A DNA stretch of 64,000 bases from positions 110,006 through 174,005 of the forward strand of contig NMRA01000735.1 of assembly GCA_002633005.1 (NCBI GenBank). Direction: 5' to 3'. Below the pieces are notes generated by a model. That model had not been told where the DNA came from and made no database searches. It saw nothing but the letters and a program-made list of their open reading frames with translations. Of this stretch, positions 20,090-62,199 are shown piece by piece. The position numbers were made by a program, and so were the translations under genes. Numbering within the stretch: position 1 is the stretch's first letter; each line of letters starts with the position of its first letter. This DNA is from Phoronis australis (lineage: Eukaryota > Animalia > Phoronida).

Positions 20090-20259
20090 TAACAAAGAAG
20101 TGTGTGAATTGTAAACAAGTCATAAACTCCTATATCGTGTATATAAATACTTATATTCATCTATTTTGTTCTCACAAACTGAAAACAACGAATATATGTT
20201 TGATACACTTGTCAAAATTTAACAAAATCTGATTACACGGTAATAACCAGTGTTCTTTC

Positions 20260-33484: not shown

Positions 33485-35151
33485 GAAAGTTAGTATGGTG
33501 GCTAAGACATCATTCTGTAATAAGCTATGTAATAAGCTGTGGTAATAATTATTACCAGTCATTTTTCATTAACAGGACTAGCCATCAGGTGGGGCAAAGG
33601 TTTATAGTGTCTGATTACTTTTGCCTTGTTCTGTATGACTGTTTGCAAGCATGCGTGTGTAGGCCCATTATGCTGTCATCCTGGTCTTTTTGTCTGGCAT
33701 CTGCTGAGCTACATCTCCAAATCCTTGGTGAATATGAAATTTTACAAATGAGATGACACAATAGAGTTTTGGAATGTATTGATTACCACTGGGCCCCTAG
33801 TGGCAACTTTACTTCTTCATGTTAGTCTCTTTATCTAGCAAGTTCCTTGATTGATTTTCATCAAATTTCGCAAATTAGTTTCAGTTATGGAGACAGCCAC
33901 ATTTTCCTACTTCCTGGCATATCTATGTAATCTGTACAGAAACGTTGCCATTGAGATGAGCACGACTGACACTGATTGTTGATTGGACGATCTCCTATGG
34001 TGTCATTTAATGGCAGTGCTTTAGGGGTAAAATTAAAGGTAAGTAGGCGCCCAAAGCCCACCGTATCACCTTGAGCACTGAGCGTAACTTATGGTGCGTA
34101 GGCACTACGTTCAAATGTCAAAAGGTGGTTGGTTGCGCCTACCTGTGACTACGTGCCACTGCAGCACTGCTTAAGGGCAATTTAGGTTTTCTTTGTGTAT
34201 GCCTCTATACCTACCAAGTTTCTTGATGTATTTTCGTGCAATATGGTATATTTGTTTCAGTTGAGGTAACGAGAACAAACTGCTATTTTCGGCTGGATTT
34301 AAAATATTCTGTGCCACTAAATATTATTATTTCTGGCAGCAGCCGCTGTGTTCTTGAAATTGCTCGGAGGTTAATTCTGAAATTTTGCTCAGGTGTTCCT
34401 ATTGAGATGATCACGACTGACAGGTTTACTGATGGGTGCAATCACCGAGACGCCCGGAGTGGCAATTTGTTTGTTTATCTGCGCTGCAATGTTTACAAAG
34501 TTCTTTTGATGAATCTGGGTGTAATTTGATGTATGTGTTACATTACTGAGGAGAGTATGCACGGCATATATTTTGGGACATGTCTGAGTGCTGCTGCGTC
34601 CTCCAGCGGTTCTGTATCAACCAAGTATCTTGATGTATGGAATTTGGCAAGAATGTTACAGCGATTGTCTTGTTGCAGACGAATATAATGTATGCTGCAC
34701 CACCTAGAGGTTTTTTATTTTATATATTACACATTATCAACATCCCTGGAAGCATACTGCCAGAGATGCAATCTTCGGCACTTTCCGTTTCTCCTGTTTT
34801 TGTATGGTGTTGACACAAATGCAGTGTGATGTAGACTATGATTTCATTTTTACTTCTTTTGATCAAATATCTACATACCCAAGACTTAACGTTCACAACC
34901 AGCTTTAACACCGACACTTGTATAATGCACACATGCACTATAATCATATTACAGGTGGGAAACTTAAGTGTCGTATCCATAGCTTGATGTCAACCATGAC
35001 CAAAGGTTGCGTTGTATAAATTTCCTGTGTATTAAATTCTGCACTGATGTGTTTTTCTCTGTGTTGCAAGTCAGAGTTTCCATGAGTATTAGATAATAAA
35101 ACACTTAAGTTCACCGATACCTTACGTAAAATAATTTGACATTTTCGTAGT
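33485..35151 (-). repeat. Inverted copy of 11488-13082
   Basis: Same alignment as for 11488-13082. Visibly higher identity than the segmental-duplication arms. Confidence 0.9.
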
Positions 35152-35153
35152 GT

Positions 35154-35445
35154 GTACTCTTGGAATGATGAACAGATATTTCTTAAAATGACGATGAATG
35201 CTCAAGTTAACTTATTCTCAAGTCCTGGACAATGTATTGTACGTGCAAAGCCAGTGGATCGGGATGCAAGAAGCTAGGTATTACTTCAAGACAGAACAAT
35301 TTTCGATAGGGCTGAATCACTCGGTTAGAAGTCGAGAAAATCATTGCTCTGCAGTCAGAGTGATTGTCATTTTTTTCAAAATTATTTATACTAGCGTAAA
35401 ATTTTGAATTATTGTGAACAAAAGGTAGCCACTAATGTGTATTTG
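35154..35445 (+). repeat. Direct copy of gene B post-stop intron segment (43463-43781)
   Basis: Near-identical gtactcttggaatgatgaacagatatttc...gccactaatgtgtatttg. More diverged inverted homolog in gene A at ~24690-24960. Confidence 0.85.
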
Positions 35446-35574
35446 TTTTACTTTCTTTGCGGCAGCTAAGGGGGAGGGGGGCGGGCCCCCTGGGCCTCAC
35501 CCCCCTAACTCCGCCTATGCACAATTATGAACATGCTGCGCTTTTTACCGGGAGCAAAAGCGGCTTAAGCCAAC

Positions 35575-38500
35575 TTACGCGTGAAGCGCAAAAGTCCGTA
35601 TTAACTGGACGGCGCTTGCTCTAGTACTGTCTACGGTGACCAGTGGTTGGGTGATTACATCGAGTGTCTAAGCGAGACCGACAAGCGTAACGTGAAGCGT
35701 AACCTAGGCGTTAGATCATTCAAATTCGGTAGTGGGCACAGCCTCCCATCGAGGGCCAGCGTTGAGATCCCAGCCGTTCTGGCGACAAAGCCTGTCACGA
35801 TCAAAACTGATGTGGTTGAATCCGAAATACCACTCTTGTTATCTAAACAAGCGATGAAAGAAGCTAAAGTGAAACTAGATCTAGAAAATGACACCGCTGA
35901 GATTATGGGCGAGCGAGTCAATTTGCAACAAACGACATCGGGTCATTATTGTGTGCCAATCGTTCCATTGCGTACTGTGGAAGACCACGAAGTGTTCGCT
36001 GTTAATCTTCAGCATCTTACCGCAACAGATCGCAAGAAGGCTCTGCTCAAATTGCACAGGCAGTTTGCGCATCCTCCCACTGACAAACTCGTTGGCTTGC
36101 TTAAAGACGCGGGGGTGTATGATGACTGTTTCCTGGATGATTTGTCTGGGATTCGGGACAATTGTTATTTGTGTAAAATCCACGCGAAAATGCCCCCGAA
36201 CCCAATCGTTGCGTTTCCTATGGCCAACGATTTTAATGATGCTGTTGCAGTCGATCTTAAAAAGTGGAAATCGCGCTGGATTCTCCACCTGGTTGATATG
36301 TGGTCCCGTCTGAAAATCTCCGTGTTTATTGACAGAAAGAAACCATCCGAAGTAATTGACAAAATAATGACTCACTGGGTTGGTGCTGGATTTGGTGTTC
36401 CGAAAGCGATTTTGTCGGTCAACGGAGGGGAATTCAGTTTGGATGAACTCGAAAAGTGGCCAGTATTTTGAACATGAAACTGCACACCACTGCTGCCGGT
36501 AGTCCATTTCAGAATGGTTTGTGCGAACGCGTGAACGCAGTTACCGATACTATGCTGATAAAGCTTGAGGATGAGTTCCCAAAACCGATTTAGCTGTGCT
36601 GCTGTGTTGGGCGAATGTTGCTTGAAATTCTCTGCATATGTGGAACGGATTCAGTAGTTATCAGTTAGTCTTTGGCAGGAATCCGAACTTGCCCAATATC
36701 ATGTCCGACGGTTTGCCCGCCCTGCAGGGAATTACCTACAGCGAGACTCTTGCGAAACACTTGAATGCGCTGTACGCCTCGAGAAGAGCGTTTGTGGCGT
36801 CTGATGCGGATGAGAGAATTAGAAGGGCGTTGTGTCACAAAGTGAGATCATCGGAACGATTTTTTGAGCATGGTACTGTTGTTTATTACAATCGTGAAGA
36901 CCGAGAACGATGGCTCGGACCCGGAAAAGTTTTGTTTCAAGACGGCAAGGTGGTGTTCGTGCGCCTTGGCGGTTTAATCGTGCGCGTGTCTCCTACGAGA
37001 CTTGTGAAAGCCGGTGAGGCACTTGGCACCCAGTCTGATGATAGTGATTCTGTTTCACAAAATGACATTTCCGATCATGGTAACGCGAAAAATTGTACAC
37101 CGACTAGAAACGTTACGTGTAGTGAACAGCTTGGTGCCTCGAATAGTGACAGTTGTGAGAATAGAAGTGACACTGCAGTTCGCCCCGACATACGCATCAG
37201 GTACTAAGTGCTCCCATCGGACGAATGGGTTACAGCTACCGTGCTAAGTCTTGCGGGAAAAGTTGCGGGAAAGTACAAAGACCGGTTTAATGTGCGGTTA
37301 GATGACGGTGGAGAAGACTTGAGCGTTGATCTTGCGAATCCTGCCGAATGGGAAACTATTGCCGATGAAGAAGTAAATCTCGTGCTTATTCCCAAATCGC
37401 GTCACAACGAGTCCGAGTGCGTTATTGCAAAACAAGTTGAAGTTGACAAGTTGAAAGAATTCGGTACCTACGAAGAGGTAAATGGCAACGGACAAAATAG
37501 CGTGTCCACCACCTGGGTTTTGTGGAGTAAAGGTGATCAAGTGCGAGCGAGATTGGTCGCCAGAGGCTTTGAGGAGCAGGCGGGCATGCCGCGGGACTCG
37601 CCCACCATTGGTAAAAGTGCATTGCGGGCGCTGCAAAACGTTGGACTCTCAAAACCACTGACATCAAGTCTGCGTTTTTGCAAGGTCGTAAACCCGAACG
37701 CGATATTTTTATCGTTCCTGAGGCACAATGCGCCGAGAAACGTTGGAAGTTGAACCGCTGCCTATATGGATTGAATGATGCTGCTCGTCAATTCTTTGAA
37801 AGCGTGTGTGAAGGGCTGCAGAAGTTGGGTTGAACCCAGTCATCCCATGATCCCGCCCTGTTTACTTTCCGCAAGGACATTCGACTAGTAGGTATGTTAT
37901 GCAGTCACATTGACGATTTTTTGCATTGCGGTGAGAACTGGTTTGACATGTTGGTTATGGCTCGTTTGCGCGAATTTTTTACGGCTGGAAAGTTAGAGGA
38001 AGGCGGCCATTTCAAATATATCGGTTTTCATGTGAAGCAAACTGACGGGAGTATTGTTCTGGATCAAAGCGACTATGCTCGCGATTTGGAAATGATTGAT
38101 GTTCCTCCTGAACGATTTAATCACAAAAGTGACATGCCGAACACGAACGAACAAACCCTGTTAAGAAGTAGCGTCGGGAGTTTGAATTGGGCAGTACAGG
38201 GCTCCCTACCGGACCTGGCGTAAGATCTGGTCGAGTTGAGCATGAAGTTCAAAACTGCCAATGTTGGTGATCTCAAGCGAGCTTTGAAAGTACTAAAAAG
38301 ACTGAAAGACTGTGATTCATTAGAGGAGGATCCTAATCTATGCCCCGTGAGTGACTGGCAGTTGACTGTTTTCAGCTACGCTGGTCATGCGAATCTTTGC
38401 GATGGTGTAAGCAGTGTTGGCGCGCACATTATCTTTCTTGAGGGCGATAACAATAAATGTCGCCCCTTATCATGGGTGGCAAACAAGATAAAACGGGTGG

Positions 38501-39155
38501 TGCGGTACACTATCGCGGCTGAAGCCCTCAGTTTGGAGGAAGCATTGGAGGACACCATCTATTTCCGCAGTATACTGGAAGATTTGTTGGGACTGCCTCC
38601 GAAATCAATTCCCATTGTCGCATTCGTGGACAATAAGAGTGTTGTCGAGGCCGTTCATTCGACCAAGTTGGTTGACGATAAACGCTTGCGGCTTGACATT
38701 AGTGCGATAAGACAGTCGTTAGAAACCAAAGATGTAAACTATACCAAGTGGTGTCCTGGTCATCAGCAGTTAGCGAACTGTATGACGAAGCGTGGTGCTT
38801 CGTCTGTGAACATTTTTAACGCCATCCCAACCGGACAGTTATAGACTTTCGCATTAGTTTACATGTAGTTAGTTTTTACTTTCAGTTTTTTCTGTTCATA
38901 CATGTATATTTACCCACGTTTTACAGCCATCCTCATCATAAAAGAAAAAGGAGTGAGTGTCGGTGATAAGCTTTGTATTAGCCGCCAGGCGTCTCTGGTG
39001 TTTAACCTCTCTCCACTGGCTGGAGGAGAGTTCCAGAGCGTCCATGCTGGTGGACTGTTCACGTTTATTGAGCTGGGACATTTGCGTTGTCTTTGAGCGA
39101 ACTAACACCATCAGCCAAGCCTTCAGGAGATCAACGATATTAACTTGTATTGACA
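35575..39155 (+). mobile_element. 5'-truncated degenerate Ty1/Copia element (GalEa-like), pol + 3' LTR
   Basis: Order PR-INT-RT-RH: LDGACSST, LHRQFAHP...CxxC, NGGEF, SPFQNGLCER, RARLVARGFEE, DIKSAFLQG, LYGLNDAAR, HIDDFL, KIKRVVRYTIAAEA, QLANCMTK. PPT aaagaaaaaggagtgag then TGTC...GACA LTR 38958-39155. Confidence 0.88.
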
Positions 39156-42100
39156 ACTAGAATTCCTTACCACCCAAAATAAAAGAAAGCACTTCAATCG
39201 TCACTCTCAAAAATAACTTTAAAATGCATACCACTTCTCAAGACATGCCAGTCCCATTGACATCACTTCCTTGCAACCATGAAATAACCCTATGCAGATC
39301 ACGATGCAGTCTATTCCTTAACAACAAGAAATTTAGATATTTCGCCTCTGTTCCTGTGGATACATTCAGGCAAATTCTCATGTTTTCTTTGCTTGTGACG
39401 TATGCAAGGAGCAGAGGGTACAGCTTTTCCAGACACTCGAACAATAACCCAATGTCTACAAATATATTCTGAAATTCCGCAATTGTACAACACTTGTTTT
39501 TTTTCTATATGGATGTCAAGAACTCAACTCGACTGAAAATAAGGTTTTATTTGAAATAGCATCAGAATATCTTTATAACATTAAATCTCATTGTGTGAGT
39601 CGATAGAATTGCATACTTGTGTATGAAAACGAATTATTTACATTCGTAATCATATTTCGTTGTAATCTTAACATCGCTTTTTCAAAAACGCTTTCTGGGT
39701 TATGTATATTCATTGTATTCTGAAGATTTCATAATTAATATTAAAAATCCAGCAACTGTCATCGGTCCTTATTGTCAAGTTTTTTCTTCATCTGGCAGTC
39801 ATCTTTTGTATCATTGAAACTAGATCCATAATATTTAACTAGCCACCTGTAAAATGACTACCTGGCTAGTTGGCTTATTTTCACGCTATAATTAAAGTCT
39901 TAACTGATTGGCACTAGTTCATTATTAAGATAATTTATCTGCCGTCATGCCCAGTATTGTACAATGACAAGTTCTTTGCTCAATTTTCAACTATTGGCTC
40001 ATGACCTGCAGTAATTGGCCCTTTGAGTTGCATGCCCAGCAAACTTATTGAAGCAACTCACTGGCTAAAAACAAATTTCTACGACAGTTTTTGTTTTAGA
40101 ATTCTTGCTTGATTCTCATATTAATAAACCTAGCGACATGTGCAAAACATCTGTGTCATTTAGAACTTTCACATTGGACATTTAAACAAACTTGAATGCT
40201 GTCCCCACTGCTTACAACAATGTTTATAAAGGACTAAGTTTGCGCGTGGTTACTCAAGTTAATCTTCACAGATCTACAGCCGAAACTGGCGGGTGTCTTT
40301 CAAGACAACGGCGGGTTTTAGTGTTAGGGAACCGGTCGAGTTTCTTAAACTATCACTTTCTCTCTGAAAATGTCAGGGTAAAAGTCTTTAAGATGATAAC
40401 TAAGTTTTTCATTATTAAACCCTCCATTATGTTTTGCACTTTCGGTAACTCTTCTCTTTCTCGGAATTGAAAAGAAAAAATAATACTTGTAAACCTCTCA
40501 GAAGTGCAAATAACTATGTAGAAAACAAAATGTTTATATTTTGCTTCTAGTATTGTCATAATACCATCAACAGCTCATCAACTGAATCCTGTCGACTTAC
40601 GCTTGTGCAATTCTATTAAAAAACAGCGAAGTTACAAAATGTTTAGTGGCATTAAAGAAAGTGACAATGTTCCCATATGCGTGGTATTGAAAAAATCTTC
40701 GGTAATTATTACACCTGAGTACAAGTTTGTGATCTCACGTTAGAGCTCAGATGGCGCTTGATCAAGTGCATACACTTTAATCTACTATAACTTTATTGAA
40801 CTTGAAAGCCTGCGGCCCATTCAAGAAAATATTAAATGACATCAACGTACAAAGAGGCTTGCATTGCTGAAATATACGTATGCAATTCAACATTTATATT
40901 CATAATATAATTTGCTGGTTTGCAGACCCGCAGGTAGTGCATGTATTTAGACAGAATAACCGCTAGTGACACGTCTTGCATTTAGCTAATGCAAAATATT
41001 TGTAAATGCTTACATGTATCTCGTAAATCATCATATCAAGTGCAGTTTGTAATAAAGTGGAAGTCGTCCTTAATTACAAAAATTCCAAACTTTTGACAAG
41101 CTACACAATGTTTCCACTCCCTGTCAAGTTTACGCCTCCCTGCTTCAGTTTCTAAACAATGAATGTCGTTAACCTTTGCCCTTGCCAGGCTTCCATGAGA
41201 ATATTTCGCGAGATGGCTCTGTTATACAATACATGTATACGTATACAATGCACCAATTTCTAAACAATGAATATAGCGTCTAATTTCAGTTATTGTTTTT
41301 ATGAGATTTGTCTTTTCTGTTGCCTCTAAGTATTGCGCCATACAAAAATTATGAAAAGCATCGGCATACACAGAAAATCTATAATTACAATTGACATTAG
41401 CTTCCGTTCTTGGAAAATACAATTGTTTACACTTTGTTTATGAATTCACTCAGAAAAATCGCTTTCACCTATCCCTTACTGAGCCCAAGTCAAACCCTTA
41501 CTAACATAACAAATTTCTGATATGAGTTACCTAAGTAGTTATTCCATGTTCGTCATATACTCGCAACAGTTTGTATCATACTTTTGGAAGCATACCCCTT
41601 CACACCTCTAATATTGTCAACATGTGTTTAAAGCAACTTATAAAGTAATTAAGATACAATTAACGAAACCGCTGACAGTGTTATCACTGAAACAAGTCCG
41701 TATTTATGTAACAAATGTCCGATATGAGTCGCCCAAGTAGTTTTTCCATGTTCGTCATGCACTTGTAAGAAACGTTTGGACGCCCTTCAGTGTAATCTCA
41801 AATAAGTTTTACCAATGCTTGAAACATTTGTTGAAGTAATCAACATACAACGGTAATCTTCACGATCTTCCAAGAACTGTGCAGTTGAAAGTACAAATGT
41901 ATTATCACTGACTCTAAATATATATTTAGAAACGGTTAACTCCACGTCCTCAATGATTTTTTAGTGTTGATAGCCCCACACCGTATGGTTGCCTTTTATG
42001 AGAAAGGTGGTTTTGCAGATTATGCCATTATGGGTCTGTCAATAAAAATGTCCTTGCAACCGCATTCCTTCTGACGTTTCTTTCATTAATTTAACTATAA

Positions 42101-42789
42101 TGAGAACAGGAACAGACTTACAGGTGTAGAACACACCATTGTCCCACTCCTGTTGTGCATTTAAAAAGCTTGTTCTGTGAACATTATCCACTCGTGCAGA
42201 CCATTCGACCTTTTCCTACATTGATTGGATTACTCTTAATATGTTGCCATGGACACTGGCGCTGATACTTTTATGGAATAGGAGTCTGAACTCCACACAT
42301 GAAAACAAAGTCAGTACCAGGTCTTTTCGTATTTTAGTGATTTGGAAGCAAACTCCACGATCTCATTAAGTAATGAAGGAATGTCTTATTAAGTGTTTCA
42401 TCAAACCAAGAAAACTATATCTTTATTATGACTCTGTGTGATGAAAAATATTGTGTGAAGTGCAATTAACTCACGAACCCAGGCTTAAGGACCCTGGCTC
42501 TGCGAGTAAAGTAGTGCATGTTACCAACCTGCAAACGGGAATAAAATAATCGGCAGCAGAACTGTGTGACAGCGCCCTTTTAGTGGACTTCTGTCTCGTT
42601 TTTGAGATTTTTGATTCCCGGTGGCGGTACATTGTGGCCACTTCGCCAAATGGGTGGTGCCACGNAAACTTAGACAGGAACGATTTCGAAATGTCCTACC
42701 CAGTTGCGTTTTGAAGATGATCACAATTCGAACTCGCAGCCACGGACAGCCATGGGGGCGAGAAATGCAGCAATAACATGACCAAAAAA

Positions 42790-42891
42790 ATGGCATTGAC
42801 ATATCTTTATTTTGCCTTCAATGGGTCATCAGCACATTTATTTAACTGTGTCAACTTCAAATGTCGTCCATGCCATTGACCATCCAATTCC
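42790..42891 (-). other. Gene B non-coding 3'UTR exon with polyadenylation signal
   Basis: Reverse strand acceptor tgattttcag|GGAATTGG at 42892/91. AATAAA at 42811-42806. Homologous to 25791-25890. Confidence 0.7.
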
Positions 42892-44285
42892 CTGAAAATC
42901 AAGCATAAAACGCCCGTTATGTAATTACAGTCGAGCACAAAATGAAAGACACTTATGTTGTGCAGTATAGTGAATAATTTTCAAAACCCCAGTCAGAGTT
43001 ATACATGTACATGTAATTCTAGTCCCAAGTTTATTTCTAAAAACAGTGCGTACATCTTCCAATGTGTACAGGTCACAAAACACAATTTTCGGAAATTACT
43101 GCAATATAATTTTCCCGACCTTACGGATTCGCCCGGCTCATTCTATTCGGCATTGATGATAAACCGTTTCAGGCACAAAATCTGTCATCCCGTGTCGATT
43201 TTCAAGGACAAATCTGCAAGAGCTCTCTATGATCGGAAAAAGGAACGATCAGAATTGAGTTGTTGATATGACTTGTGGCCTAGAGATTTGCATCTGTTTC
43301 GTATAAACACAGGTAGAGAACTATGTGTAAGAAATCTTCCTGCAAACCAGCCAGTCATCAACGCCCAGTAAAAGGAGCAAGGCGTCACTATCACGTCGGG
43401 ATAATTTCGATAAGATCGAAAACGTATCATCTACAGTGTCTGTTCAAGAGTGTGAGTCCACGGTACTCTTGGAATGATGAACAGATATTTCTTAACATGA
43501 CGATGAATGCTCAAGTTAAGTTATTCTCAATTCCTGGAAAATGTCTTGTACATGCAAAGCCAGTGGGTCGGGATGCAAGAAGCTAGGTATTACTTTAAGA
43601 CAGAACAATCTTCGATAGGGCTGAATCACTCGGTAAGAAGTCGAGAAAATTGTTGCTCTGCAGTCAGTGTCAGTGAACTTGGATAGGGATGAGTGATTGT
43701 CATTTTTTTTTCAAAATTATTTATACTAGCGTTAAAATTTTGAATTATTGTGAACAAAATTCAGCCACTAATGTGTATTTGGTAATCTACAGGACTCCAA
43801 AATACATTTTAACTCCATGTTATACTTGCGGTAACCCCTCCTGCTATAAGTGGACTGATCCACTATACATTAGCTGTGAAATTTATTGTTCCAGTTGCAG
43901 CAACCCAACATGAATATCAGTCGTTTCTGACAGAAATTACGTATACTTTTTCTATTTTTGTTTACTTTTATTTTTTATGGTTGTGTATACTAACAATTCT
44001 AGAATGTAGTATTCAATTGCGAGTTGCTATGGAACTTTTAAAAACACTATCGGCACTTTTTGTCGGCCATTTTCCTTCACTTTGCAAGCTCTAAATTTTC
44101 GCTTTCCCCGACAAGAATTGGCAATAACTCGGTCATTTGTTATGATAAGGACATGCTTCATACATCAAAATGATCAGAAAATACTGTATTTTTAGAAAAA
44201 ATAACACTTACAAAAATGACAAATCCCGACTTAAGACTCATTTTGTGGTGCTGGGTCAGATATACATGTATAGTTACATACGTAC

Positions 44286-44398
44286 CTAATCATTACACTT
44301 GCAATATGACCCACCGCACTTGCCACCATTTTTGAATTGGATACGGCAAGCGTAATCGCAAACTGGATCCCAACATCTTCTTCCCCTTTCCAGTGCAA
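44286..44398 (-). CDS. Defensin-like gene B, second coding exon: (V)ALERGRR-CWDPVCDYACRIQFKNGGKCGGSYCKCND*
   Basis: Acceptor tctctttttcag|TT. Open frame to TAG followed by gtacgt donor. RGRR cleavage site. Spacing C-x4-C-x3-C-x9-C-x4-C-x-C with GxC motif. 113 nt. Confidence 0.9.
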
Positions 44399-45618
44399 CT
44401 GAAAAAGAGATTTATTATTCACTTGCAAAATAGAGCCCTACTTTATTCTCACCATTCTAACGACAGACATGTGCATCTTCAGCCCGTGGCCGAGATTTGG
44501 AGCGATGGGGGTTGGCGTAGAAATGACACAAGCACCATGGAGAAAATGACGGCATAAGAAGTGTTGGATAGGGGGCGTGTTCAGGAGGTCGGGTGCTTGT
44601 TCTTGGAAGAAAAGAGCGGGGAACGTGGAACTGAATGACAACCGGTTATTATCATCTTTGCAGTTCGTGAAGTATACACGTTGACTACCACCGTGTTGAA
44701 GCTTTGGTTATTACATGTAGCTTCCAAAATTGATTATATTGCCGTTAACGCAAGATATTTCAATCAAAAATAACTGTTGAAAAATTGGACGCTTACAGTG
44801 TACATTGTAGAACCACGAAGTAAAGAGCTTTGTAAACGTTGTACCTTATGCAATTCCAGTACCAGCTCTCATTGTATCTTCATAAGCATTCTGTGCCAGG
44901 TTTGAATTTCGACCTTTAAAATCAAGTTGATTCACAGAGATCGCTGCTAATTAAAATGACTGTTTGTTACCTTGTGCCTTCCGGATTCAATGAAATGCCA
45001 GTAGATTGGTTTGATTTTTTTACTACTCAGATCGAAGGAGTCGTGAACTTACACCAGTGAACACTTCCTTTTTCTATGTTCGGACTGTCGACCATAGGTA
45101 TTATTTTTAGAGAAGAAAACCAAAATTCTAGGAATACTTTCTAAGGAAAGTATGCACCAACGTTGTGGCGTGTTGACTGACTCCTAAACAAAAGTAAACG
45201 ACGACCAAACTTGTCACAGCCGAGGTAGAACTTTGACTGACTCGGCAGCTCTCAAAGTTGGACTATATGAAAAGAAATTGGCGCGAAATTCTTGCCTCCC
45301 AAAACGTCACTTCCGGAGTAGAGGACGAATACTTGTTTCAATTAAAAAATGCTGTAATTAACTGAAAATATATCTGGGATAATCAACGAAACATATTTTC
45401 GCTAAAAATAACATGAAGAAAGCTTCCCTTCGCTTTTAATCCACGTCACGTGCTAGTCCAGTAGTCAGCTCCACGGACATACATGTATAAACTTCACAAA
45501 AACGCAAATGTTTGCGAGACATCGCTAGGCCTTACAAGCACTACACGTGATTACTTTAGCTTTACTTGCAAAACCTGTGCAGAACTCGGCCCAGGGCACA
45601 GAAAGTTATTGTTCTTAC

Positions 45619-45700
45619 CGTCTTCTTCGCTTTCTACCGACAGCCCCTGGATGCAGCCCACTGCCAGCATCAATACAATGAATAGCCCGACGCACTTCAT
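45619..45700 (-). CDS. Defensin-like gene B, first coding exon: MKCVGLFIVLMLAVGCIQG-LSVESEED, phase-1 donor
   Basis: Reverse strand: gaattacag|AAAACTACAAGTC-ATG. Signal peptide 13/19 identical to gene A. Donor G|gtaag. 82 nt. Confidence 0.9.
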
Positions 45701-45934
45701 GACTTGTAGTTTTCTGTAATTCAATATCACATGAAGTTACGGAGATTCAAGTACATAAAAAGAGAAAAGTGCACACCGTGTGTCCCCTGGATTGCCTGCG
45801 TAACACAATTTCTGCAGCGCAATCATTTCTACGTACAGTTAATAAGTCATGTGCAGGCATCTTTCAGAACTTCCAACTCCATCATTTGAATTGTTTTTTT
45901 AAAGAAAATCTTGTAATTAAAGAGCCAGCAGTTA

Positions 45935-45960
45935 TTTTTTATACTGAGTTGCCATGTGAC
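45935..45960 (-). promoter_or_regulatory. Candidate core promoter of gene B (gtcacatggcaac + TATAAAAA)
   Basis: Reverse complement of ttttttatactgagttgccatgtgac. Matches the gene A upstream block. Confidence 0.45.
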
Positions 45961-46277
45961 AGCAAACCAAGACAAAGAATATTTTGTGATTCACTTGGCG
46001 TTTGCTATTGCTATTTCCTTACATATCAAAGACAATTTATCCAGAACAATGTTGAGCAAATCCTATACAAACCTGGTGATGCATGGTAAACTTTGATGTA
46101 GGTTCAAATTCTGAACAACTACTACCTAATAACAATAATATGCTACGTGATTTATGCCAGCCTAAAATAACTCTATAGTAAGCATGTACATGTATTCCGG
46201 TGCCTCTTGACGTAGGTTGAAGATATTTATACAAGTTATAACAATTTGTCCCACTTGGTGGCAGGCCAAAGCAACTC

Positions 46278-46286
46278 GGGATTTCC
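46278..46286. promoter_or_regulatory. kappaB-like site GGGATTTCC upstream of gene B (aligned with GGAATCCC at 15216-15223 upstream of gene A)
   Basis: Motif resembles Rel/NF-kB consensus and occupies the homologous position in both paralogs. Short motif, may be chance. Confidence 0.3.
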
Positions 46287-46574
46287 GTAACATTGGATTG
46301 CTAATAGACAGCGGTTGGAGTGAGAACAGGTTTTATGAGCATTTTTAATGGGAAAAATATGGAATTACGGTGTCTAAAAAGTTGCTGATTTTGCACAATT
46401 GTAATCTGGTGTTGTTCATTATGGAAACTGACACTGAATGCATCGGATGCAAACGATGTAGTCTTCAGATCGTCACTTCTGCATTGAATCAACTGCAAAA
46501 TGGGCAACCAAGACACTATAATGAACTACATTCCTGTTATCACAACGACAGCGCTAGTGTCAACTAAATGAGGT

Positions 46575-49500
46575 TGTTGAGTAAAGTAGAGTAGTTAGTA
46601 TTATTGCCGGCCACGGCGCGACATTCGGTGTCTGTCTGTTCGCTCCAATATAGAGCTCCGGCTATCTATGGTGTTGTTTTTCTCTTGACTGACAAAGAGT
46701 CATCGTCATCAGACCTTAATTTAACATGGCGGCAGCATGTAGCGCCTTTTTGAACCGGTTGTGCCGGACTTCCTGTTTTCACTGGCTATCTTACACGCCA
46801 CCGACCTGACCTCCGTCATTCTCGCCGGCCTCTGTCCCTGTCACTTCGCTGCGTGCTGACTTTGCAACATGCCCCCAAACCGAAACCTGTGCCAGGAATT
46901 CATCGTATATCTACTCCGGACTTTTCTGGCCCAACCTCTAAGGAAAGCTGGAAATTGTTTACGCAAAAGTGGCAAATTTATAGCGTTATTGCCCAACTGG
47001 ACGAGCATCCCAGGGATTACCAGGTGACGTTGCTATTGCACGCCGTAGGGGATGAAGGGCTGAAAATTTACAACGGTTTCCAGTTTGACACAGAGGGTGC
47101 AGACCGCACTATAGCTGAAATCTTGGTCAAATTTGATAATTTCGCCGTGGGGGAGGTTATTGAAACGTATGAACGATTTATATTCAACCAGCGTTCACAG
47201 GGTCCCGACGACAGTTTTGAATCTTTTCTTGCTGCGATTCGTACCTTAATGACAACATGCAACTACGAGCAGTCGTCGGCTGATAGTTTCTTACGAGATA
47301 GAACAGTACTTGAAATAGGCGTTAAGGACACTCAAAAACGTTTGTTGCGAGATGGACTCACATTAACAAAGTGCATCGTAATATGTAAGGCGGCAGAAGC
47401 CGCGAGTCTGCAAGCCCAAGCATTGAACCCGGTACCCTCTATTTAACGTTTATCGCGCTCCGCCCGTGGAAAATCTGTTTTTAAACCACAGCCGCGAAAT
47501 AAATCTTGGTCGACCTTCGAAACTCGCGAATGCATGTTTTGCGGCGGCGGACACCCATCGCGGCAGTCTGACTGTCCCGACTGGGGGAAACCTGCAAAAA
47601 ACTACGGCGAAAGGAATCATTTTAAAGCTAAATGCCTCGATAACAACGTGAGACAAGTTGACGGAACGTCAGATGACGATACTTACGATATACCTACATG
47701 TATTTACAACCAGTCACCGCCCACGCAAAGAAAAACCGCATTACAGCTAAACTTTCGGTCAACGGGAGCCAGAAACGTTTCCTGGTTGATACTGGTGCGG
47801 ACGTCAACACCATCAGTAAACGTTTTGTTAAAGCTAAGGACAGTTTTCAGTGGAGAACGCGTTACAATCCTGGGCGAAGCGACACTATCCGTCATTAACG
47901 TACGCACCAGCCAACCTTATACCATTGTCTTTGTGGTGGTGCCCGATGACATGCAGTGTTTGTTGAGCTTGAAAACTGTGCTTGATATGGATTTGATCAC
48001 AATCAACGACACCAATTTTATGTCACAAGTAGAGTCCGATGAGTCCAATCTGGGCGACTTGGGGAGGCCCAACTACATCTAAATCTCAAAGTCAAGCCTC
48101 GCGCTTTGCCATCAAGCAACATCCCGATGGCGCTTAAGGATTCGGTCAAATACGAAATCGATCGGTTAGTTAACCAGGGTGTCCTGGTCCCAGTCAACCA
48201 ACCGACCTAACGGGTAAGTCAAATGACTTTTCTCCAGAATCCGAAAGGCAAGCTTCGACTTTGCATAGAACCCCCGCCACTCAACGAGGCATAAATGCGC
48301 GATCATTATACATTACCTACCGTGGAGGATGTATTGCCCATGCTCCGACATGCCAGAGTGTTAACTAAGCTAGACGTCAAAAATGCGTTTTGGCACGTAC
48401 GTTTGGACGAGGAGTTTAGTCTGCTGACCACTATGATACCACCATTTGGAAAATTTCGTTGGGCAAGACTGCGGTTCGGTCTAAAGGTCTCTAGCGAGAT
48501 GTTTCAACGGCGTTTAACCGAAGCTCTCGTTGGACTAGACGGCGTATTCACGATAGCAGACGATATCGTAGTGGTCGGCTGCGGTCAAAATAAATCAGAG
48601 TGGCAAATGGGCCATGATAACAAACTGAAACTTTTATATAACGCGTGCGAACAGCGCCACATTATCCTTAATACTGAGAAGGCAGATATTGCGAAACCCG
48701 AAATACCATTTCATGGACACTTGTTCAGTGATCAAGGGATGAAAGTGGACTAAAATAAAGTAGACGCAATTTTAAAAATGCCAGCTCCGCCTGTGTGGCA
48801 TGGTTCAATACGTGGCACGATTTCTTCCGAATTTATCCGTAGATTTGGAACCGCCACGAGCCCTTACGCGCAAAGGCGCACTGTGGATTTGGTCCAGTGC
48901 ATGTGACACGGCCCTACAAACAGTCGAATTGAACTTGACTGAAGCCCCCGTGCTGGTTTACTATGACCGGGACAAGCAGACTGTTCTGCAGGTGGATTCT
49001 AGTAAGGATGGCGTCGGAGCCGTTCTCCTTCAGGATGGTCATCCCGTCGAATGTGCTTGCCGCTCTCTATTTCAATCCGAACGTAACTGTGCTCAGATTG
49101 AAAAAGAACTACTGTCCGTGGTTTTTTGATAAGAACGTTTTGATTAGTAAAGTTATGGCACCAAAGTGGTAGTGCAGAATATTCATTGGCCCCTTGCACC
49201 TATTTTGAAATGGCCGTTGAGCCAGACCCCGAAGCGCCTGCAAACTTTGCTAATGAGAATTCATCGGTATCAACTTCATTTTCAGATCGTGAAAGGAACC
49301 GAACTATATATCGCTGATTCGCTGAGTCGTTCATATTTGGAAGCAGCTGACGGAACCTCGAGCGTAAGGAACATTCAGTTATTCTCGAACATTTCCGACA
49401 CGCAATTACAAGAAATAAGAGAGACTACCGAAAGCGACAGGGCCATGACAATGTTGAAAACATTTGTTCTCGATGGTTGGCCAGACAAAAATCGTGTGCC

Positions 49501-50910
49501 TTGTGAGCTTAAACTTATTTCAGCTTGCGTGACATACTCTCTTGCGAAGATGGCATAATGTTGAAAGGAGAAGCCATAATAGTTCCGACTAAACTCCGAA
49601 AGGACATCACTAAACGACTTTATTCCGCACACATGGAATATAACAGCATGATGCGACGTGCTCGCTCGCTCGTTTACTGGACCGTAATGAACATAAATCA
49701 AACAGCTTGTTGACTGTTGCCCTCCGTGCCAGGAATTGCGTCCCAGAAATCAGACATTAAAGCCAATGCCTGACGGAAACGCACCGTGGGAGAAAGTATC
49801 CAGCGATTCTTTTTAACTCGATGGCCGACAGTTCCTTGTGGTAATTGACCAGCATTCAAACTTAATTGAAGTTGACCGATTACAAAGTCTTACAAGCTTA
49901 AAAGTCATCGCGTTTTGGCATTCCGAAACTGTTTATGACTGATATCGATTCGCAATTTACCTCATTCGAGTTCCGTTCGTTCGCTAAAGAATGGGGAATT
50001 GCGCAGTCGTTTTCGTCACCAGGCCATCACAGTGCCGTTAAGGTTGCAAACCATCTGATGATTAAAGCTACAAAAGATGGCACTTATCCTAATCTCGCAC
50101 TTTTGGAACAGCGCATCACTCCTCGCGAGGACACGGGATTTAGCCCAGTTCAAATGTTGTTCGGTAGATTGACGCGCATCACGATACCTCATTTAAATTT
50201 CAAAAGAGACCGCGAGACCCGGCGCCGCTGAAAGGAGAAATGCGACGAAGGAGTCCATGAACAAGTATTTTGACCAAAATGCAAAGGACTTACCGGAGCT
50301 TATAGTTGGCAACACTGTCTACTTCGAACATAAGGAAGGGCATCGATGGATTCTGGGGAAAGTTCAAGAGAAATTATCAGACAGGACGTACGTGGTGGAA
50401 TCTTCCAGTGGAGGAGTATATCGGAGAAACCGAGTTCAAATTCGTCCAACTCGAGTGCCTTTTCAACCCTTACCAGATGTTGAGCTCCCAGATGTAATGC
50501 CAAACCTACCGCAAGAAGTTTCCGATATTCTGAGCGATCCGAGTATACCAACTCAAACGGACGTTTCGAGTTCAGGCGATCCAGCGATTGTCAGGAGAAG
50601 CGAACGAATTCGTCGAGCTCCTACGCATTTAAAGGACTACGATACCAAGTGACACTATAGTGTGGCTACTTAGGGACTATCGGGATGTGTATTATTTTAA
50701 GTTAGATTTTATAAGTTTTACATTATATTCAGCAGATAAGTTACTTAAAAGAGGGAGGATGTTGAGTAGTGTAGAGTAGTCAGTAGTACTGCCGGCCACG
50801 GCTCGGCATTCGGTGTCTGTCTGTTCGCTCCAATATACAGCTCCGGCTATCTATACGTATGGTGTTGTTTTTTCTCTTGACTGACTAAGAATCATCGTCA
50901 TCAGACCTTA
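46575..50910 (+). mobile_element. Degenerate Ty3/Gypsy LTR retrotransposon 2 with both LTRs
   Basis: 5' LTR 46575-46726 (TGTT...AACA), PBS tggcggcagc 46727-36, gag (46853-47446), Zn knuckle, LVDTGADVN, RT IADDIVV, RNase H QVDSSKDGVGAVL/AQIEKELL, integrase, PPT aaaagagggagga, 3' LTR 50760-50910 lacking its terminal bases. Many stops and frameshifts. Confidence 0.93.
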
Positions 50911-53139
50911 TCGTACCCACGTTCTTAGATTTTAAAACGACACGACGATTATCGTCAGTCCTGCAAAGCATTAGCTGAATAACAAACAATCAAGACACTA
51001 TAATGTACTAAATTTGCGTTATGAAACCCACAGCTAAACAATGGACGCGCAATCGTCTATAGTTTAACACGATAAGACGAGACGGGTTCGTAACCCGGTA
51101 TTGTTCTACGGGATAACGATGTTTAACTCGATATACATGTACATGCACTTTGTAGGATTAAAAGTGATGCAGCGAGATTTTCGTTTCATACCGGTATCAA
51201 AGATGTGTTTAAGCATGAAATGCTAAACAATTTTCCTTGTTTCCACAATGACCCACGGGTATCCCACTTTTAGGAAATGGCGACCTTGCACGTTTGTTCT
51301 GGTAGGTGTGATCAAGGGGACCATTAGAAAGACACTCAAAAATGAGCCAGAATAAATTTTTCTAGTAACCACCTAAAAATACCTGCAACACCTACTACCC
51401 AATTCACTGTGTAAATTGGTGATTAAAATAATGAGTTATGCCATATCTCACATTGTGTCATTTGCTTGCTTCTTCTAAAACATACATTAGTTTACACTGG
51501 TGCTTGCAAGTTTCGGATGTCGTGAGTGTGGACAACGATTCCGAAGGACATATAAACGTTCCCGTCAACCATAGAAACAACATACCTCGACCATGTTGAC
51601 GGAGGCTTGTCCGTTGGCCACCTAAATCTTCCAATGAATACACATTTTTGAACACTGCTATTCTTCAATTTACATGCAGAAAGAAGCGTGTGAATTTAGT
51701 TTGAACCATAAGATGTCTTGGGCCAATATCTAGTGATAATCAAAATCGCCGAGTCAATATTACTGCTATAAACCGACTGTTTGAAATCATGCACATGAAC
51801 TTTTAATTTGCGCGTCTGATTAACTCTGTTATCAGTTCACCCTCTTTCGAGGATTTTTTTTATTGTGACTATGAACGGTTTCTCCTGAAATACAGGCATT
51901 GTTGGTGCATTCATAACATACATGTAGACAACAAAAATGCAACCACTTATTTGCTAGTCTGAAGAAACCATAATATTGGTTTGGGTCAAAATCCTCAGAA
52001 AGCAGTCGACATTGACAAAACATGCCGATGAGAAGTCGGCCTCCCGTTCAGTAACACTAGAACCTCGCTAAAAAGCAATACTTTGCAAGATTACGAGAGA
52101 TACATGTATCTCCGTGCATTGTAAATAAGGATACGTGACGGTGGCTAGATTTTATCTACAATGTAGGTCCTAGCGTAGGTCCTAGCGTTACTGAACGCAC
52201 TCCTTGTTTTGCCCAAGTACACTGTTCATTTTTCATGGATGAGTGTAGACGGAAGCTTATTTTCAATAATATGTGTTGTTGTTGTCGTGGTTGTTGTAAT
52301 TGTTGTATTATTTTCTCTGTCGATGGACTTGTACAATAAACAACTGAAGCTAGAAGTAGAACTGGACTGAGAAGTCGACAGTTCTCAGTTGAGGCAACTT
52401 TGCTACTGTTAGTAGTGTTCGCTATGTATAAAACGAAGCCGGTTTTTGGTTTTTACACAGTGAGAAAAGACATTTCAATGGCGGTCGTAAAGAGCAGTGA
52501 CGCATTTTTGCTACCTGAAATTTATGAGTATTTAACTCCGCAGGTAAAAGAGAATCTAAACCTTTTCTCAACGCTCTATCAAAATGATTTTGGCGCTTAA
52601 AAAGAGTGGGCCAGTGTTGCGACCTGGCATTTATGAATGCCAGCTGGATTTTAAAACGCGACTTGGGATTTTGGGTCTCAATCACAAAATGCAACCTGCC
52701 GATTTCCTTAACGTTGAGCCCATCTCAGATTGTTAAGATGCCAGTGCAAAACAGATAACTCTTCCCGCAGATGCTGCCCTAGTATGTCTCGCTCTACTCG
52801 TTGTATCATTTTTTTTTTGTTTTTAAAAAGGTGCAACGAGATTTGCGTTGGAAACACTGTATCGTTCCAAGCAGTTACGTTGTAGCGTGCTTTTCGTTCT
52901 ACTCGCTGTATCGTTCTAAGATTTAAAATGATATAACAAGACCCGCGTTTATCACGTAACACGATTTCTTTTGTTTACTGCTTTTGTGTGAAAGACCATC
53001 GTTTTTGTGTATTTTACAGTAAGAAGAAGAAGAAGTTATGAATTCTTGTTGACTATATTTTAACTGACATGATGTGGAGTTGATAGAACCACGCACTGAT
53101 CTACGCATAGGAGTATCCATAGTGGTCAACGGTCTGGAA

Positions 53140-53321
53140 TCTTACTTAGACCTGGTCTAATCTTGGGTTAAACCAGGTTTCACTAAACGATTTTTCTAAA
53201 GGTTAAACCACCTTTACAGAATGCAGATTATCTTTAAGTCTGTTCTAAGTCCAGTTAAAACCACGTTTAATATTAAACCAAGTTTAAATTTAAATTTAAG
53301 CCACCTTCATGGAATCGGCAG
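53140..53321 (-). mobile_element. Solo left-end fragment of the same Harbinger family
   Basis: Reverse complement matches 18853-18960 (ttaaagataatctgcatt...aaaggtggtttaac) and ends in ccaccttcatggaatcggcag. Confidence 0.75.
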
Positions 53322-54564
53322 TCTGTTGCGAGTTTAGAACTCTGTAAGTGCGCTCACAAACTGTCACTTTTTGTTCTATTTTCTATTTTGTGTTCTAACG
53401 CAGACCAAATATGCTGAGGGTCTCCGTCTTCGGTGGCCCCTTACAAACGATGACCACTACATGGGCGTTTTACGGACTTAAGTATCACAGAATATTATCG
53501 CTCCTTTTTTAAGCTTCTAAAATTTGTTTGCAAGACATTCCTTCAGAAGGGTACAGTTTGCATATCAGTGTTGTTTCTTGGGGACTGTTTTGGAAATTTT
53601 CTGAAAGTCTTCACGAGCGCGTAACGTCATTTTAATTTAATATAAATAGGTAAATGAAACAACGATAATGGATCAACTGAAATTTTCGGATATAATAAGG
53701 TCCTTCGTCAACATTAACAGAAATAAAGTAAAATCAAAAACTATATGACAATGGACATTTAAGATGTGGCGTAATATATTATATCCAAAAATTCCAGTTG
53801 ATCCATTCTTGTTGTTTTATTCATCTACTTATATTCTACATTTCGGGGGAACAATAGTATCCTTGGGAGCATCTGTATCGCCTTATTTAGATTCAGATTT
53901 ATTTTGTACGTTATCTAACGGAATATAAGTCGTGATTTCTCCCACCACGTTACAAAAAGCATACATAATCTAACCTGCATGAGAGATTTTTAACCAAATC
54001 GGGCTCTTCTAACGAGTTTTAAGGAACTTAATTGTTGGAATTCCTTTTCACTAGCCTTGCTAATACCATGCAGTGAACATTTTTAAAACTTCTTACTAGG
54101 ACTAGTTCTTTGTTCGAATTGTGCAAAATTGACTATTTCAGGCGTATCGTGAAGAGAATCAACGGGACTTGCGACGGAGACCATTGCAAACATGCCAGTG
54201 ACTGTCCACACAGCATAGAAGTTTGACGCGATAACAGATTTTATTTTTAATGTGGCTAACCGTGCAAATTTATTGCAAAAACTGGTGTTACTAGGTGGAG
54301 TAAAAGTACATGTACATGTACACGATAAGTTACACTCAAATAGATGAATTTATCGAACGAGCTGGCTTTAGGCAGCCGTTTACTCTCAAGTATATGTGCG
54401 TATTCCTTCCGGAAGCATGTACAACTGATTAATCGAAAATGAAGACTTTAAAAAGTCGTTTAATGCTGTGAATCTGCAAGACAGTCCATATAGATTGGGG
54501 GTTGAGGGGGAGTCTCAGGCGGAAACATCCAGCCCGAACCTATTCGTTAAAGATAGTACGTAGT

Positions 54565-55030
54565 ACATGGAAAACAACACCAAATTGGCTGCGGCTACTG
54601 GTATCGCTAATTACTGTTGATAACTGTTTTGCTGTTAATTGTGAACTTGCTTCTGATTCTAAGCACTTCACGCAATCATAGGGACGTACCCGGCAAAATT
54701 CTTCCGAGTGGTGTTTCCGTAAATGACAGGAGAGTCCAAACTATTAGAGGACAGCCTGTAGACACCATTGAGCGGGAAGATTTTCGAAATTCTAAAGCAG
54801 TGACCTTTGATATGTTGCAAAGGTTGACACTGCAGAGGTTCCTGCATGACACTTAACACAGCTTCAGTAGGGGGAAAGGAAATTTGTACACACAACAATG
54901 ACTCCCAGCTCTATGTTTCTGAGATGAGACGGAAATGAGGATGCCGTCATGGTTGTTCGTAAAGAATGGGACTCAAATTTCTGATATGTACTTTGGTAAA
55001 GAAAGAGAACGTTCTTGCATTACCGAGGAA
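54565..55030 (+). pseudogene. Probable decayed exon of a secreted/membrane-anchored protein; second copy 58865-59320
   Basis: Hydrophobic LITVLLLIVNLLLILSTS followed by hydrophilic sequence. Between copies several third-position changes (gtc/gtg, caa/cag, act/acg, agg/aga). No in-frame ATG, stops present. Confidence 0.4.
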
Positions 55031-55435
55031 ATCTTTCCAAGCAGGCTAGCATAAATGAATGATTACACCGCAATACATACTGGGATGGAAATGGAATTTT
55101 TTAGTCTGAGAATGACTTGACGAAAGTTTTTTATCTGGTTGCATGTTACTTATATCGCTGGATTCGGGAACCATTCACTATTCTGGAAGTTCACTACTCG
55201 GAAGGTTAACTACTATGAAAATATCGAAAATTTAGGACTCTGGTTTAGGGTTTCTACTTTTGCATGCGAAGTAAACGATGCTTTGGTAATTATATGCACT
55301 GAGTGGTGTATATGTACTTATACCAAAAAAAAGTCCAGGAACTACATTTATCGATTTCTTGCGCATACGAAATTGCCCTCATGTATTACGAATACGCAAC
55401 ATGAGTACGTTCTTGAATTTTTAAAGGGATTCCAA

Positions 55436-56050
55436 ATCCGGTTTTGGTTCACTCTAAAAATGGCTTTCTCATTCAGTTCTCTAAAAAAGATATGCTCTGT
55501 AATCCTTGACTACCCTCAAATGTTTGCTGGAAACTTTGAAAACTCCTTTCAATGATTGCTAAACGGGCAAGCGTGACATGCGCTTTCTGCTAATTACACG
55601 GCAACTGTGGAGAAAAGACCATCCACCAGCGACCATAATGTCTAAACTGTGACAAAGGGTGAATGAAATTTTAATAGATTCAATCCATAAAAAGGACACT
55701 GAACCTTGTTTTGACGATATCAACCAATCCACAATATATCACCTGCTGATGCATTAATGGCTTGATTCTTGAAAGATAGAAACGGGAATCAACGAAGAAT
55801 TCATACCAAGTCTCACGAATTGGACATTATGGAACTTGGTGAGTGGTCTTTTCAGACAGATGACGTGTAACTCGCTAAAAGCCTACGCCACGCTTGCCCC
55901 TACAGAGGACTTTGAAAGGAGTTTTCTAATTTTCCTCAAAATATTTGGGGGTTGTCGAGCCTTTAGAGAGCATTATTGTTATTATTATGGTACAGAGAAC
56001 TAGATAGGGAAGTCGTTTTTAGCATATGTTAAAAGGTCAAAATCGGGTTT
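55436..56050. mobile_element. ~600-bp imperfect foldback (MITE-like)
   Basis: gaaaactcctttcaa/ttgaaaggagttttc, ggcaagcgtg/cacgcttgcc, gaaaagacca/tggtcttttc, ccataatgtc/gacattatgg are symmetric about ~55740. Confidence 0.75.
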
Positions 56051-57500
56051 AGTATACATTTTACTTAGAAGATAGACGCCGGTGATGCATTAGCAGATCA
56101 CAAAACGAGGATTTGTGGAAATCATCATAAAACTGGGCTTAGTAGGAAGTAAGAAAATTGATGAATTATCAGCCAAGTTCCATTCATCAAACCATTGTCA
56201 ATTTCGCATCGTTTCACAGCGCGAGTGATCTAGTATAGTATGAAACGCGACTAGGGTCACTTTGTGACAGGTCTTGTCTGACACGTGACGAGTAGTATTT
56301 TTAACACTCTGCCAAGGCCTATTTGTGAAAGACACTTTTAAACAACGGTATCAAGATTTTTGGGTAGCGGCTCAACTCATGCATAGGTGGATTTAGTAAT
56401 ACACATCACTAATTAAACAAAAGAAAAGCGAGCTTTTGTATATGGCCGGTTACAGAATATCGGATATCGAACATATTCGTAAATAATATCAGCTGGATTG
56501 CACACTGGCGAGTTTTGGTAATGTAAACCGAGGAACTTCGGCATGGTATCATTTTCAAATAGTTTTTTTTATTCATTATTCAGTAACCGGTCATCCGTAA
56601 GTTCTCTATTAACTTGTGCAGAAATGTAACAGCAATGAACACCTAGTCATGCACAAACCTGAAAATGCTATTACTCACAGCAGAGTGATCTCAAGGTGAA
56701 GGTAAAGGTGACATGCTGGTACATTTAATAGGCATTGGGTCAATTGTTAAAGTTACGCTGCGTAAAACAGGTAGTCATATTACTAGTACTCATTCAATAT
56801 AGTTACGTTGCCAAAACAACAATACGAAGACAATGATGCTCACTTGATTCATATGCAGCTCAATCTGAATCCTCCATTATCGTTCAAGCAAAATTCAATA
56901 GTTTTGCTCCAGAAGCCTGGTCGACACCACCACCAACACCACCATTCTATATACTTATAGTTAAACTAGTCAATATGTAAAATAACCATAAGTTACCTAT
57001 GAAACTGTTACTATTGCACGGCTGGGCACGTTGCAAGACACTGGGGATGTTTTTAACTCATCAACACCATTTTCTGTGTAATAGTTGGCTGGGCCAAATC
57101 CATTAATCATAGGAAAGACTCAAAAACGTGGGTAAACGTCCCATAACTGCTTTTTGAAGAAATGTAAGCGTCCTCTTACAGGGACTGGTGGAAATTTTTA
57201 GTAAACATCCTTCACACAAGAATGCAAGATTGATAGATCACCCAAAAATCTGGGGTACTAGTATGAATGTTCGGTGTTCTTGCCTTTTAGAATACCGTTC
57301 ATTCGGTAACGTCGTTATACTTTCAAGGAATTTGTCAGTTTTTGGCCACATTTATTCAAAAAGGGGTCTTTTTCACTATAAGAGGGAGGGGGCAGTGTTT
57401 TCTGGGTTAGTCAATCTGAGGACGATGCTTGCTTTGCAGCCACTCGGTAAGCACTAAAAACTGGGGCTACATCAGTCTTCCTTTTGTCAGTTAAGTTCAG

Positions 57501-57512
57501 ATATATATATAC

Positions 57513-57557
<45 letters not shown>
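57501..57557. repeat. (TA)n(TG)n microsatellite
   Basis: Direct reading. Confidence 0.95.
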
Positions 57558-57559
<2 letters not shown>

Positions 57560-60615: not shown

Positions 60616-60967
60616 AATTTTTGGATCGAGTCTGTTGACCGACTAAAACCGGATTTGGTATAGTTTGACGTCAGTGATGCATAGCAGATAACAGAACTAG
60701 GACAAGAACAAGTCGTTGACACTCATGGCCTTGGGAACTCCCCTGTTTTGTGGAGAGTAATCGACAAAAAAACACTTAAGGTCATTTTTTAAACTATGAG
60801 ATGGTTTATTACTGACTGTATTACGCTTGGAAAATGCGTGTCTCAGAAATAGTACAATAACTGGGCTTTCACCTAATAGGAAGTAACTTCAGAGATAATA
60901 GAATACGATTTCCAGGTGTGATATTTTAATTTCGATTTCCCAGTAGCCTCAAAAGGAGCACCTTTCA

Positions 60968-61890: not shown

Positions 61891-62199
61891 TCAAGGCCTT
61901 AACAACCAGAAATATACCTTAACCATGAAACAGTTCTTAGAAGGATATATCCCAACGTAGGTGCCTCTCAATATCCTAATGACGCGAGGATGTTGCCCTA
62001 GAGGGATACCATTCAATACATTTAGTTATGAAAAAGGAGACAACATCTACAGAAAAAAGTCCTGTAAGCAGTTCCTTGAAAAAACTTGTAGGCTAGGAAA
62101 TGTAGACATTCATTGAAATAAGCAGTAAAGGTGTCGTTTTTGGCGCATCAGTCACTGTACAACCTAAATAATTTTTTACTTTTGTTCTTTTTGTGTAAA

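Follow-up and report, generated by a model that had tools for sequence, protein, structure and literature searches.

A 29-residue six-cysteine peptide gene of Phoronis australis belongs to a compact defensin-like family and is probably a host-defence variant rather than a potassium channel toxin

Does the minus-strand segment at 44286-44398 of the 64,000-nucleotide stretch of Phoronis australis DNA analysed here (the window, to which all positions refer) encode a K+ channel toxin, or does its toxin-like appearance belong to a peptide family of another kind? A first-pass annotation had proposed that the encoded peptide (peptide B) has the geometry of a K+ channel toxin and that B and a paralog (peptide A) have split function, A acting as a cationic antimicrobial and B as a target-binding peptide. 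Our analysis places B, an unannotated product of a small spliced animal gene, among the CSαβ defensin-like peptides. With a probability of roughly 60% we regard it as one variant in a duplicated, fast-diverging family of compact six-Cys peptides that would be secreted host-defence defensins and not K+ channel toxins.

The segment 44286-44398 is precisely the coding portion of one exon, the last coding exon of gene B, which follows an AG acceptor (44400-44399, phase 1) and codes for the last residues of a propiece, then RGRR (44376-44387), a 29-residue peptide with six cysteines (44289-44375) and a stop codon (44288-44286). From established knowledge RGRR is a predicted furin/Kex2-type cleavage site, and the N-terminus of the predicted mature peptide is placed directly behind it. 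A phase-1 GT..AG intron (44399-45618) separates this exon from one at 45619-45713, also on the minus strand, that contains an ATG (45700), codes for a signal-like hydrophobic stretch and an acidic propiece, and is followed by a GT donor at 45618. Read from the sequence, hydrophobic start, acidic propiece and RGRR follow the secreted-prepropeptide layout of invertebrate six-Cys defensins, and the precursor of B is likely to be secreted. A signal-pro-mature layout with dibasic cleavage has been described for insect defensins (PMC11116330, PMC3234185). The mature peptide carries cysteines at residues 1, 6, 10, 20, 25 and 27, which gives a spacing of 4-3-9-4-1 within the C...CxxxC...C...CxC frame of the CSαβ superfamily. 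Its Cys4 is embedded in GKCGG, a Tyr precedes Cys5, the residue separating Cys5 from Cys6 is Lys, and Cys6 is followed by Asn; four residues of the peptide are aromatic. Its net charge is +1 (three Lys and one Arg against three Asp). The exon translation thereby bears out the features that had been read at first sight, namely four residues between Cys1 and Cys2, GKC before Cys4, a Tyr near the CxC and a charge of +1.

Gene A is found on the plus strand of the same window, with a signal/acidic-propiece exon at 15928-16009 (67 of 81 nt identical to B) and a last coding exon at 23715-23827 that encodes RSRR and a peptide of again 29 residues (spacing 4-3-7-4-1, no aromatics). Peptide A is the second six-Cys pattern match of the window (23738-23812), and its Cys4 context, GECKG, and net charge of +4 agree with the GEC and the charge of about +4 noted before. 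Each arm of an inverted duplication carries one of the two genes, and upstream blocks with GTCACATG and TATAAAA have been kept aligned between the genes; on the B side this block (45936-45987, minus strand, 86.5% identity) is a putative core promoter. The inverted duplication itself (343-27426 versus 42674-62169) is long and old, shows 64-87% identity in blocks and takes up most of the window, and the insertions that came after it differ from arm to arm. The six-Cys pattern occurred twice in the window versus once in 100 same-size order-3 Markov windows. We rejected a chance ORF for B, given the rarity of the pattern in simulated windows, the paralogs in the inverted duplication, the signal-like exons, and spliced RNA reads of relatives at both introns.

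The signal exons of A and B differ with dN 0.20 and dS 0.17. For the mature parts we obtained dN 0.63 and dS 0.47 over 27 aligned codons, and dN 1.03 and dS 0.36 over the 21 non-Cys codons, small numbers from a gapped alignment in which leaving out the Cys codons inflates the ratio. These values fit a fast divergence of the mature parts. Such rapid change of the mature part is typical of antimicrobial and toxin families alike.

Mobile elements occur on both sides of gene B. An LTR retroelement with a reverse-transcriptase ORF (RVT_1), which we take to be Ty3/gypsy, occupies 46570-50910, about 0.6 kb upstream of the putative TATA box of B, and splits a block homologous to the upstream DNA of A. 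A further element (35154-43781, presumably copia-like) has direct repeats of 87% identity and pol-like ORFs that have decayed, and reaches to within about 0.5 kb of the B stop codon on its downstream side; the single ORF scanned in it gave no Pfam family. The 7.7-kb intron of A contains a PIF/Harbinger-type transposon at 19122-21860 (DDE_Tnp_4 and Myb_DNA-bind_5), and five of six other long ORFs scanned fell into transposase, Myb-like or reverse-transcriptase Pfam families. An inverted pair of 1.6 kb with 85.5% identity (11485-13082 and 33485-35154) and a degenerate array of 107-nt repeats (2700-3770) were also observed. The window has a GC content near 40% and an 18-fold enrichment of TACATGTA, both of which are common in marine invertebrates. 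Sites resembling kB motifs were not above chance in the window (8 found, 6.2 expected); one of them, upstream of B (46278-46286), has a near-match at the aligned place upstream of A (about 15222-15229).

Four RNA runs with the same species label (X1-X4) were mapped on both genes, with about 18-19% read of each of three raw runs. Reads on the coding exons of A and B were stranded in the predicted direction, with heavy coverage of the signal exon of A, and those on 45619-45713 (X1-X3) showed about 90% identity to B and come from relatives. In X3, 359 reads splice across the B intron at the same joint and 29 across the A intron; their source is a B-like and an A-like relative, not A and B themselves. 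The signal exons of the relatives' transcripts are about 90% identical and their mature parts are different, the B-like one starting C-WGFG-C and the A-like one C-SGFA-C in a hand translation of read pieces. The mature part of the B-like relative (X3 reads on 44369-44398, hand translation, with the C-terminal half outside the reads) begins C-W-G-F-G-C-E-L-S-C-R; its C-E-L-S-C-R is also found in the helix of tamapin, and its G-F-G-C resembles the N-terminal motif of plectasin-type defensins, both of which may be chance.

Besides B, at least six kinds of transcript continue from the shared signal exon, with alleles and paralogs not separable among them. The dominant one continues R-T-R-R-I-T and reached 1,183, 2,125 and 2,723 reads at one junction in three runs. 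In the X1-X3 reads on 15928-16009 this commonest transcript, with I-T after the dibasic site, is neither A nor B, and in two further types the propiece ends differently, with V-D-I-Q-E-R. The window thus shows only part of the size and variety of the family. Two 5'-end motifs of the relatives' transcripts were not above chance in the window, and a non-coding first exon was not located there. Since RNA reveals this many other transcript types, a division of functions between two genes is too simple a picture, but some functional divergence of A and B is plausible because their mature parts diverged fast.

The mature part of B itself was not seen in the four runs, with no depth at 44335-44421 in X1, X2 and X4 and non-B letters in 360 of 360 X3 reads at 44379-44385. 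Together with the LTR elements on both sides of B within about 0.6 kb, this would agree with B being a duplicate that is silent or in decay, or else a rare allele, with residues shaped by relaxed selection. We consider such a status unlikely: the frame is intact with all six Cys, the splice sites are canonical and the promoter block is conserved, and the RNA covered, that fraction of each raw run, stems from other individuals; the gene may also be inducible.

The label defensin rests on fold and gene layout, because neither the B exon frame nor the A signal-exon frame had a homologue in the protein collections searched. Pfam returned no family for any of three proteins scanned, including the 36-aa B exon product, all short queries with little power, and a profile of A and B against 1.84 billion representatives gave no match at E<=0.001. 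The single-sequence AlphaFold2 model of B (pLDDT 74, pTM 0.41) predicts a helix (11-21) packed on a sheet of two strands (25-28 and 31-34), as is characteristic of CSαβ peptides. Among 48,161 chains, this model had 23 structural matches at Z>=2, weak and near-tied (Z 2.0-3.6), which from their titles we take to be CSαβ-type throughout. Seven of these are toxins or channel ligands and 16 are defensin-type or other non-toxin peptides. The top match is ergtoxin (Z 3.6); drosomycin, plant defensins, nasonin-1M, termicin and plectasin are among the non-toxins, and brazzein, a neurotoxin on a defensin scaffold from fly venom and a Nav1.5 antagonist were found as well. Foldseek with the B model yielded no rows at E<=0.001 and 69 weak rows at E<=10, the first a scorpion defensin (not significant) and many of them tamapin/SK toxin entries. 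For the A model Foldseek gave three rows, and the lack of any structural match at Z>=2 says nothing on the fold of A. The models favour a more standard scaffold in B than in A and do not discriminate between toxin and defensin. Sequence searches of the PDB gave three matches for A, navitoxin (E 0.11) and two α-KTx15 toxins, and six for B, of which the sole six-Cys one is a scorpion defensin at a non-significant E of 9.5; the A+B profile matches navitoxin at E 0.006. In Atlas language-model features short scorpion toxins were nearest to both A (0.89) and B (0.86), leads only at values under 0.9. Judged by sequence and language-model features, A is at least as toxin-like as B.

The short n-loop had been taken as the toxin mark of B. 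We rejected it as a B-specific trait: a four-residue loop cannot separate B from A because A has the same loop, and it is present in four of four family members in which this part is visible (A, B and two RNA relatives). A hand count in supplement 1 (parts 1-2 of 5) of PMC5116183 gave a four-residue first loop in 10 of 62 hexapod six-Cys rows, including gallerimycins and termicins, and the same study describes a scorpion defensin and charybdotoxin of the same scorpion as both short-looped and different in the Cys4 motif. Nasonin-1, with an n-loop shorter than in classical insect defensins, kills two Gram-negative bacteria (PMC2853521). The loop of B is thus not diagnostic of a toxin and appears to be a family trait that is common in antimicrobial defensins. 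Its length of four lies inside the range of 4-16 given in PMC5116183 and outside the older defensin consensus of 5-16 (PMC3234185). The full spacing 4-3-9-4-1 is confined, in parts 1-2 of 5 of the PMC5116183 table, to cobatoxin, BmBKTx1 and two ESTs from velvet worms that are uncharacterised; none of the characterised antimicrobials there has it.

Usual contacts of K+ channel blockers are K27, M29 and N30 (charybdotoxin numbering) and an aromatic residue (PMC5705969, PMC8252768), and counting from the cysteines allows a comparison with B. Lys19 (codon 44319-44321, minus strand), directly before Cys4, is at the position of K27, where A has Glu, and the Lys after Cys5 is at the position of R34, which forms a salt bridge in simulations (PMC5705969). 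B has Gly-Gly in place of M29 and N30 and Asn in place of Y36, and the α-KTx signature K-C4-x-N is represented by K-C-G-G, as the first-pass annotation had seen when it called the match partial. In pore-blocking α-KTx the dyad aromatic lies 5-7 A from the Lys; its usual position, Cys6+1, is Asn in B, and the Tyr at Cys5-1 might stand in for it. The RXCQ-type helix motif common to SK blockers (PMC9523135) is also lacking, with P-V-C-D around Cys2 in B. Of the proposed toxin geometry, the predicted CSαβ fold, the compact spacing and the Lys at the K27 position stand, and K-C-x-N, the Cys6+1 aromatic and RXCQ are absent.

A dedicated pore blocker, with Lys19 plugging the channel filter and A as the antimicrobial partner, would explain Lys19, the second Lys at Cys5+1, the spacing of cobatoxin and BmBKTx1 and the G-K-C-x-G-x-x-C-K-C that B shares with tamapin. 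Some toxins also work without the dyad (PMC8252768). Acidic residues can orient a binding face (PMC4424837), and Asp3 and Asp7, on the loop and helix and probably away from the sheet, could give B this toxin-type polarity; Asp29 at the C-terminus, near the putative contact face, would work against it. We nevertheless regard a pore blocker of this kind as quite improbable, since navitoxin with Lys or Asn mutated loses Kv1.3 activity (PMC8252768), most blockers use M29 and N30 where B has glycines (PMC5705969), the Cys6+1 aromatic and RXCQ are missing, the net charge is only +1, the short loop is found in A too and the mature part of B was not seen among the reads of the four RNA runs. Canonical pore block by A appears unlikely because of the Glu at the pore-plug position, and the contrast between A and B at the single residue before Cys4 stands. 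A bolder version, which we judge very improbable, would have a minimal, lineage-specific CSαβ family of 29-residue peptides lose the long n-loop independently, with B becoming a true K+ channel pore blocker by a non-canonical face (Lys19, Tyr24, Lys26, no Asn) next to its non-blocking sister A. If true, this would be an independent origin of a channel toxin from a defensin outside scorpions. Channel block at micromolar concentrations does not discriminate between toxin and defensin and would be compatible with a host-defence role, since plectasin, an antibacterial defensin, blocks Kv1.3 at 2.8 uM (PMC4303811).

We return to host defence as the preferred function of the family. The short loop is common to the paralog and the RNA relatives, and B is therefore more likely a variant of a fast-changing immune family than a K+ channel toxin. 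The toxin determinants missing from B (Asn at Cys4+2, the aromatic at Cys6+1, RXCQ), the 16 of 23 fold matches of the model to defensin-type or other non-toxin peptides and the abundant family transcripts in three RNA runs support the same conclusion. The precursor would be secreted, its acidic propiece cut off behind RGRR in a furin-type cleavage, and the released product would be a 29-residue helix-plus-hairpin peptide with three disulfides, which in the CSαβ superfamily join C1-C4, C2-C5 and C3-C6. With four aromatics and near-neutral charge, B would probably bind one particular molecule of the microbial surface, either a precursor of the cell wall or a lipid of the membrane, through its aromatics; charge-driven lysis would suit the aromatic-free A (+4) better. 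The compact frame would be ancestral to the family, and the position before Cys4 a variable one, with Lys as one of its states. Antibacterial activity is on record for an anionic defensin (PMC3234185). Against host defence count the exact spacing of B in two K+ toxins and in no characterised antimicrobial of table parts 1-2 of 5, the older 5-16 loop consensus, the scorpion toxins as Atlas neighbours and the many SK toxins among the 69 Foldseek rows of B. A conserved signal with a hypervariable mature part is just as characteristic of toxin families, which also counts against it.

This last pattern, together with the high expression and with the fly venom neurotoxin and Nav1.5 antagonist among the fold matches of B, could also mean that the whole family has come to serve as toxins, defensive or predatory, against varied targets. 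The same pattern is known from antimicrobial families (PMC2853521) and the long ORFs of the window include no other toxin-like genes, so that we rate such a recruitment as rather improbable. A non-immune ligand or protease inhibitor on the CSαβ scaffold seems far-fetched: the scaffold has such roles elsewhere, brazzein is among the fold matches and a fungal defensin-like peptide acts in stress signalling (PMC4165938), but no result of our analysis points to a receptor or protease, and fast diversification fits an external target better.

This unannotated family of very small defensin-like peptides, which evolves fast, is highly expressed and has no match in the protein collections searched, is a modest source of antimicrobial candidates. 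The natural pair of A and B, with the same short loop and Glu versus Lys at the pore plug, offers a simple test of whether a short loop and Lys without Asn suffice for channel block. Potent channel block by B, if it occurred, would form a natural counterpart to the defensin-to-toxin route proposed for scorpions.

Among known systems, B can be compared with short-n-loop invertebrate defensins (nasonins, termicin, gallerimycin and Centruroides limpidus defensin 1), which have the same six-Cys CSαβ frame and a short first loop, of exactly four residues in the latter three (PMC5116183). The B model superimposes on nasonin-1M and on termicin with an rmsd of 1.8 over 30 residues each, and nasonins resemble the B family in their multigene expansion (PMC2853521). 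However, B has no significant sequence similarity to these defensins, is only 29 residues long with a net charge of +1, and has an acidic propeptide and RGRR, whereas nasonins lack a propeptide. Insect-type defensins of the classical kind, which mussels and amphioxus are also reported to have, share signal, propiece and dibasic cut with B, and the G-G-x-C and C-x-C end of coprisin resembles that of B (A+B profile, E 0.47). Their n-loop has 12-16 residues in most rows of PMC5116183 versus four in B, and the amphioxus genes described in PMC4165938 have an intron inside the mature region that A and B do not have. Scorpion α-KTx (charybdotoxin type, cobatoxin, BmBKTx1) and the engineered navitoxin are like B in the compact frame, the Lys before Cys4 and a basic residue between Cys5 and Cys6, but B differs from the α-KTx pore blockers in the absent signature Asn, the absent aromatic after Cys6 and its weak net charge. 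The α-KTx5 SK blockers scyllatoxin and tamapin have, as B does, a four-residue first loop and a G-K-C-x-G-x-x-C-K-C hairpin without Asn; their RXCQ-type helix motif is basic, where B has an acidic P-V-C-D (PMC9523135).
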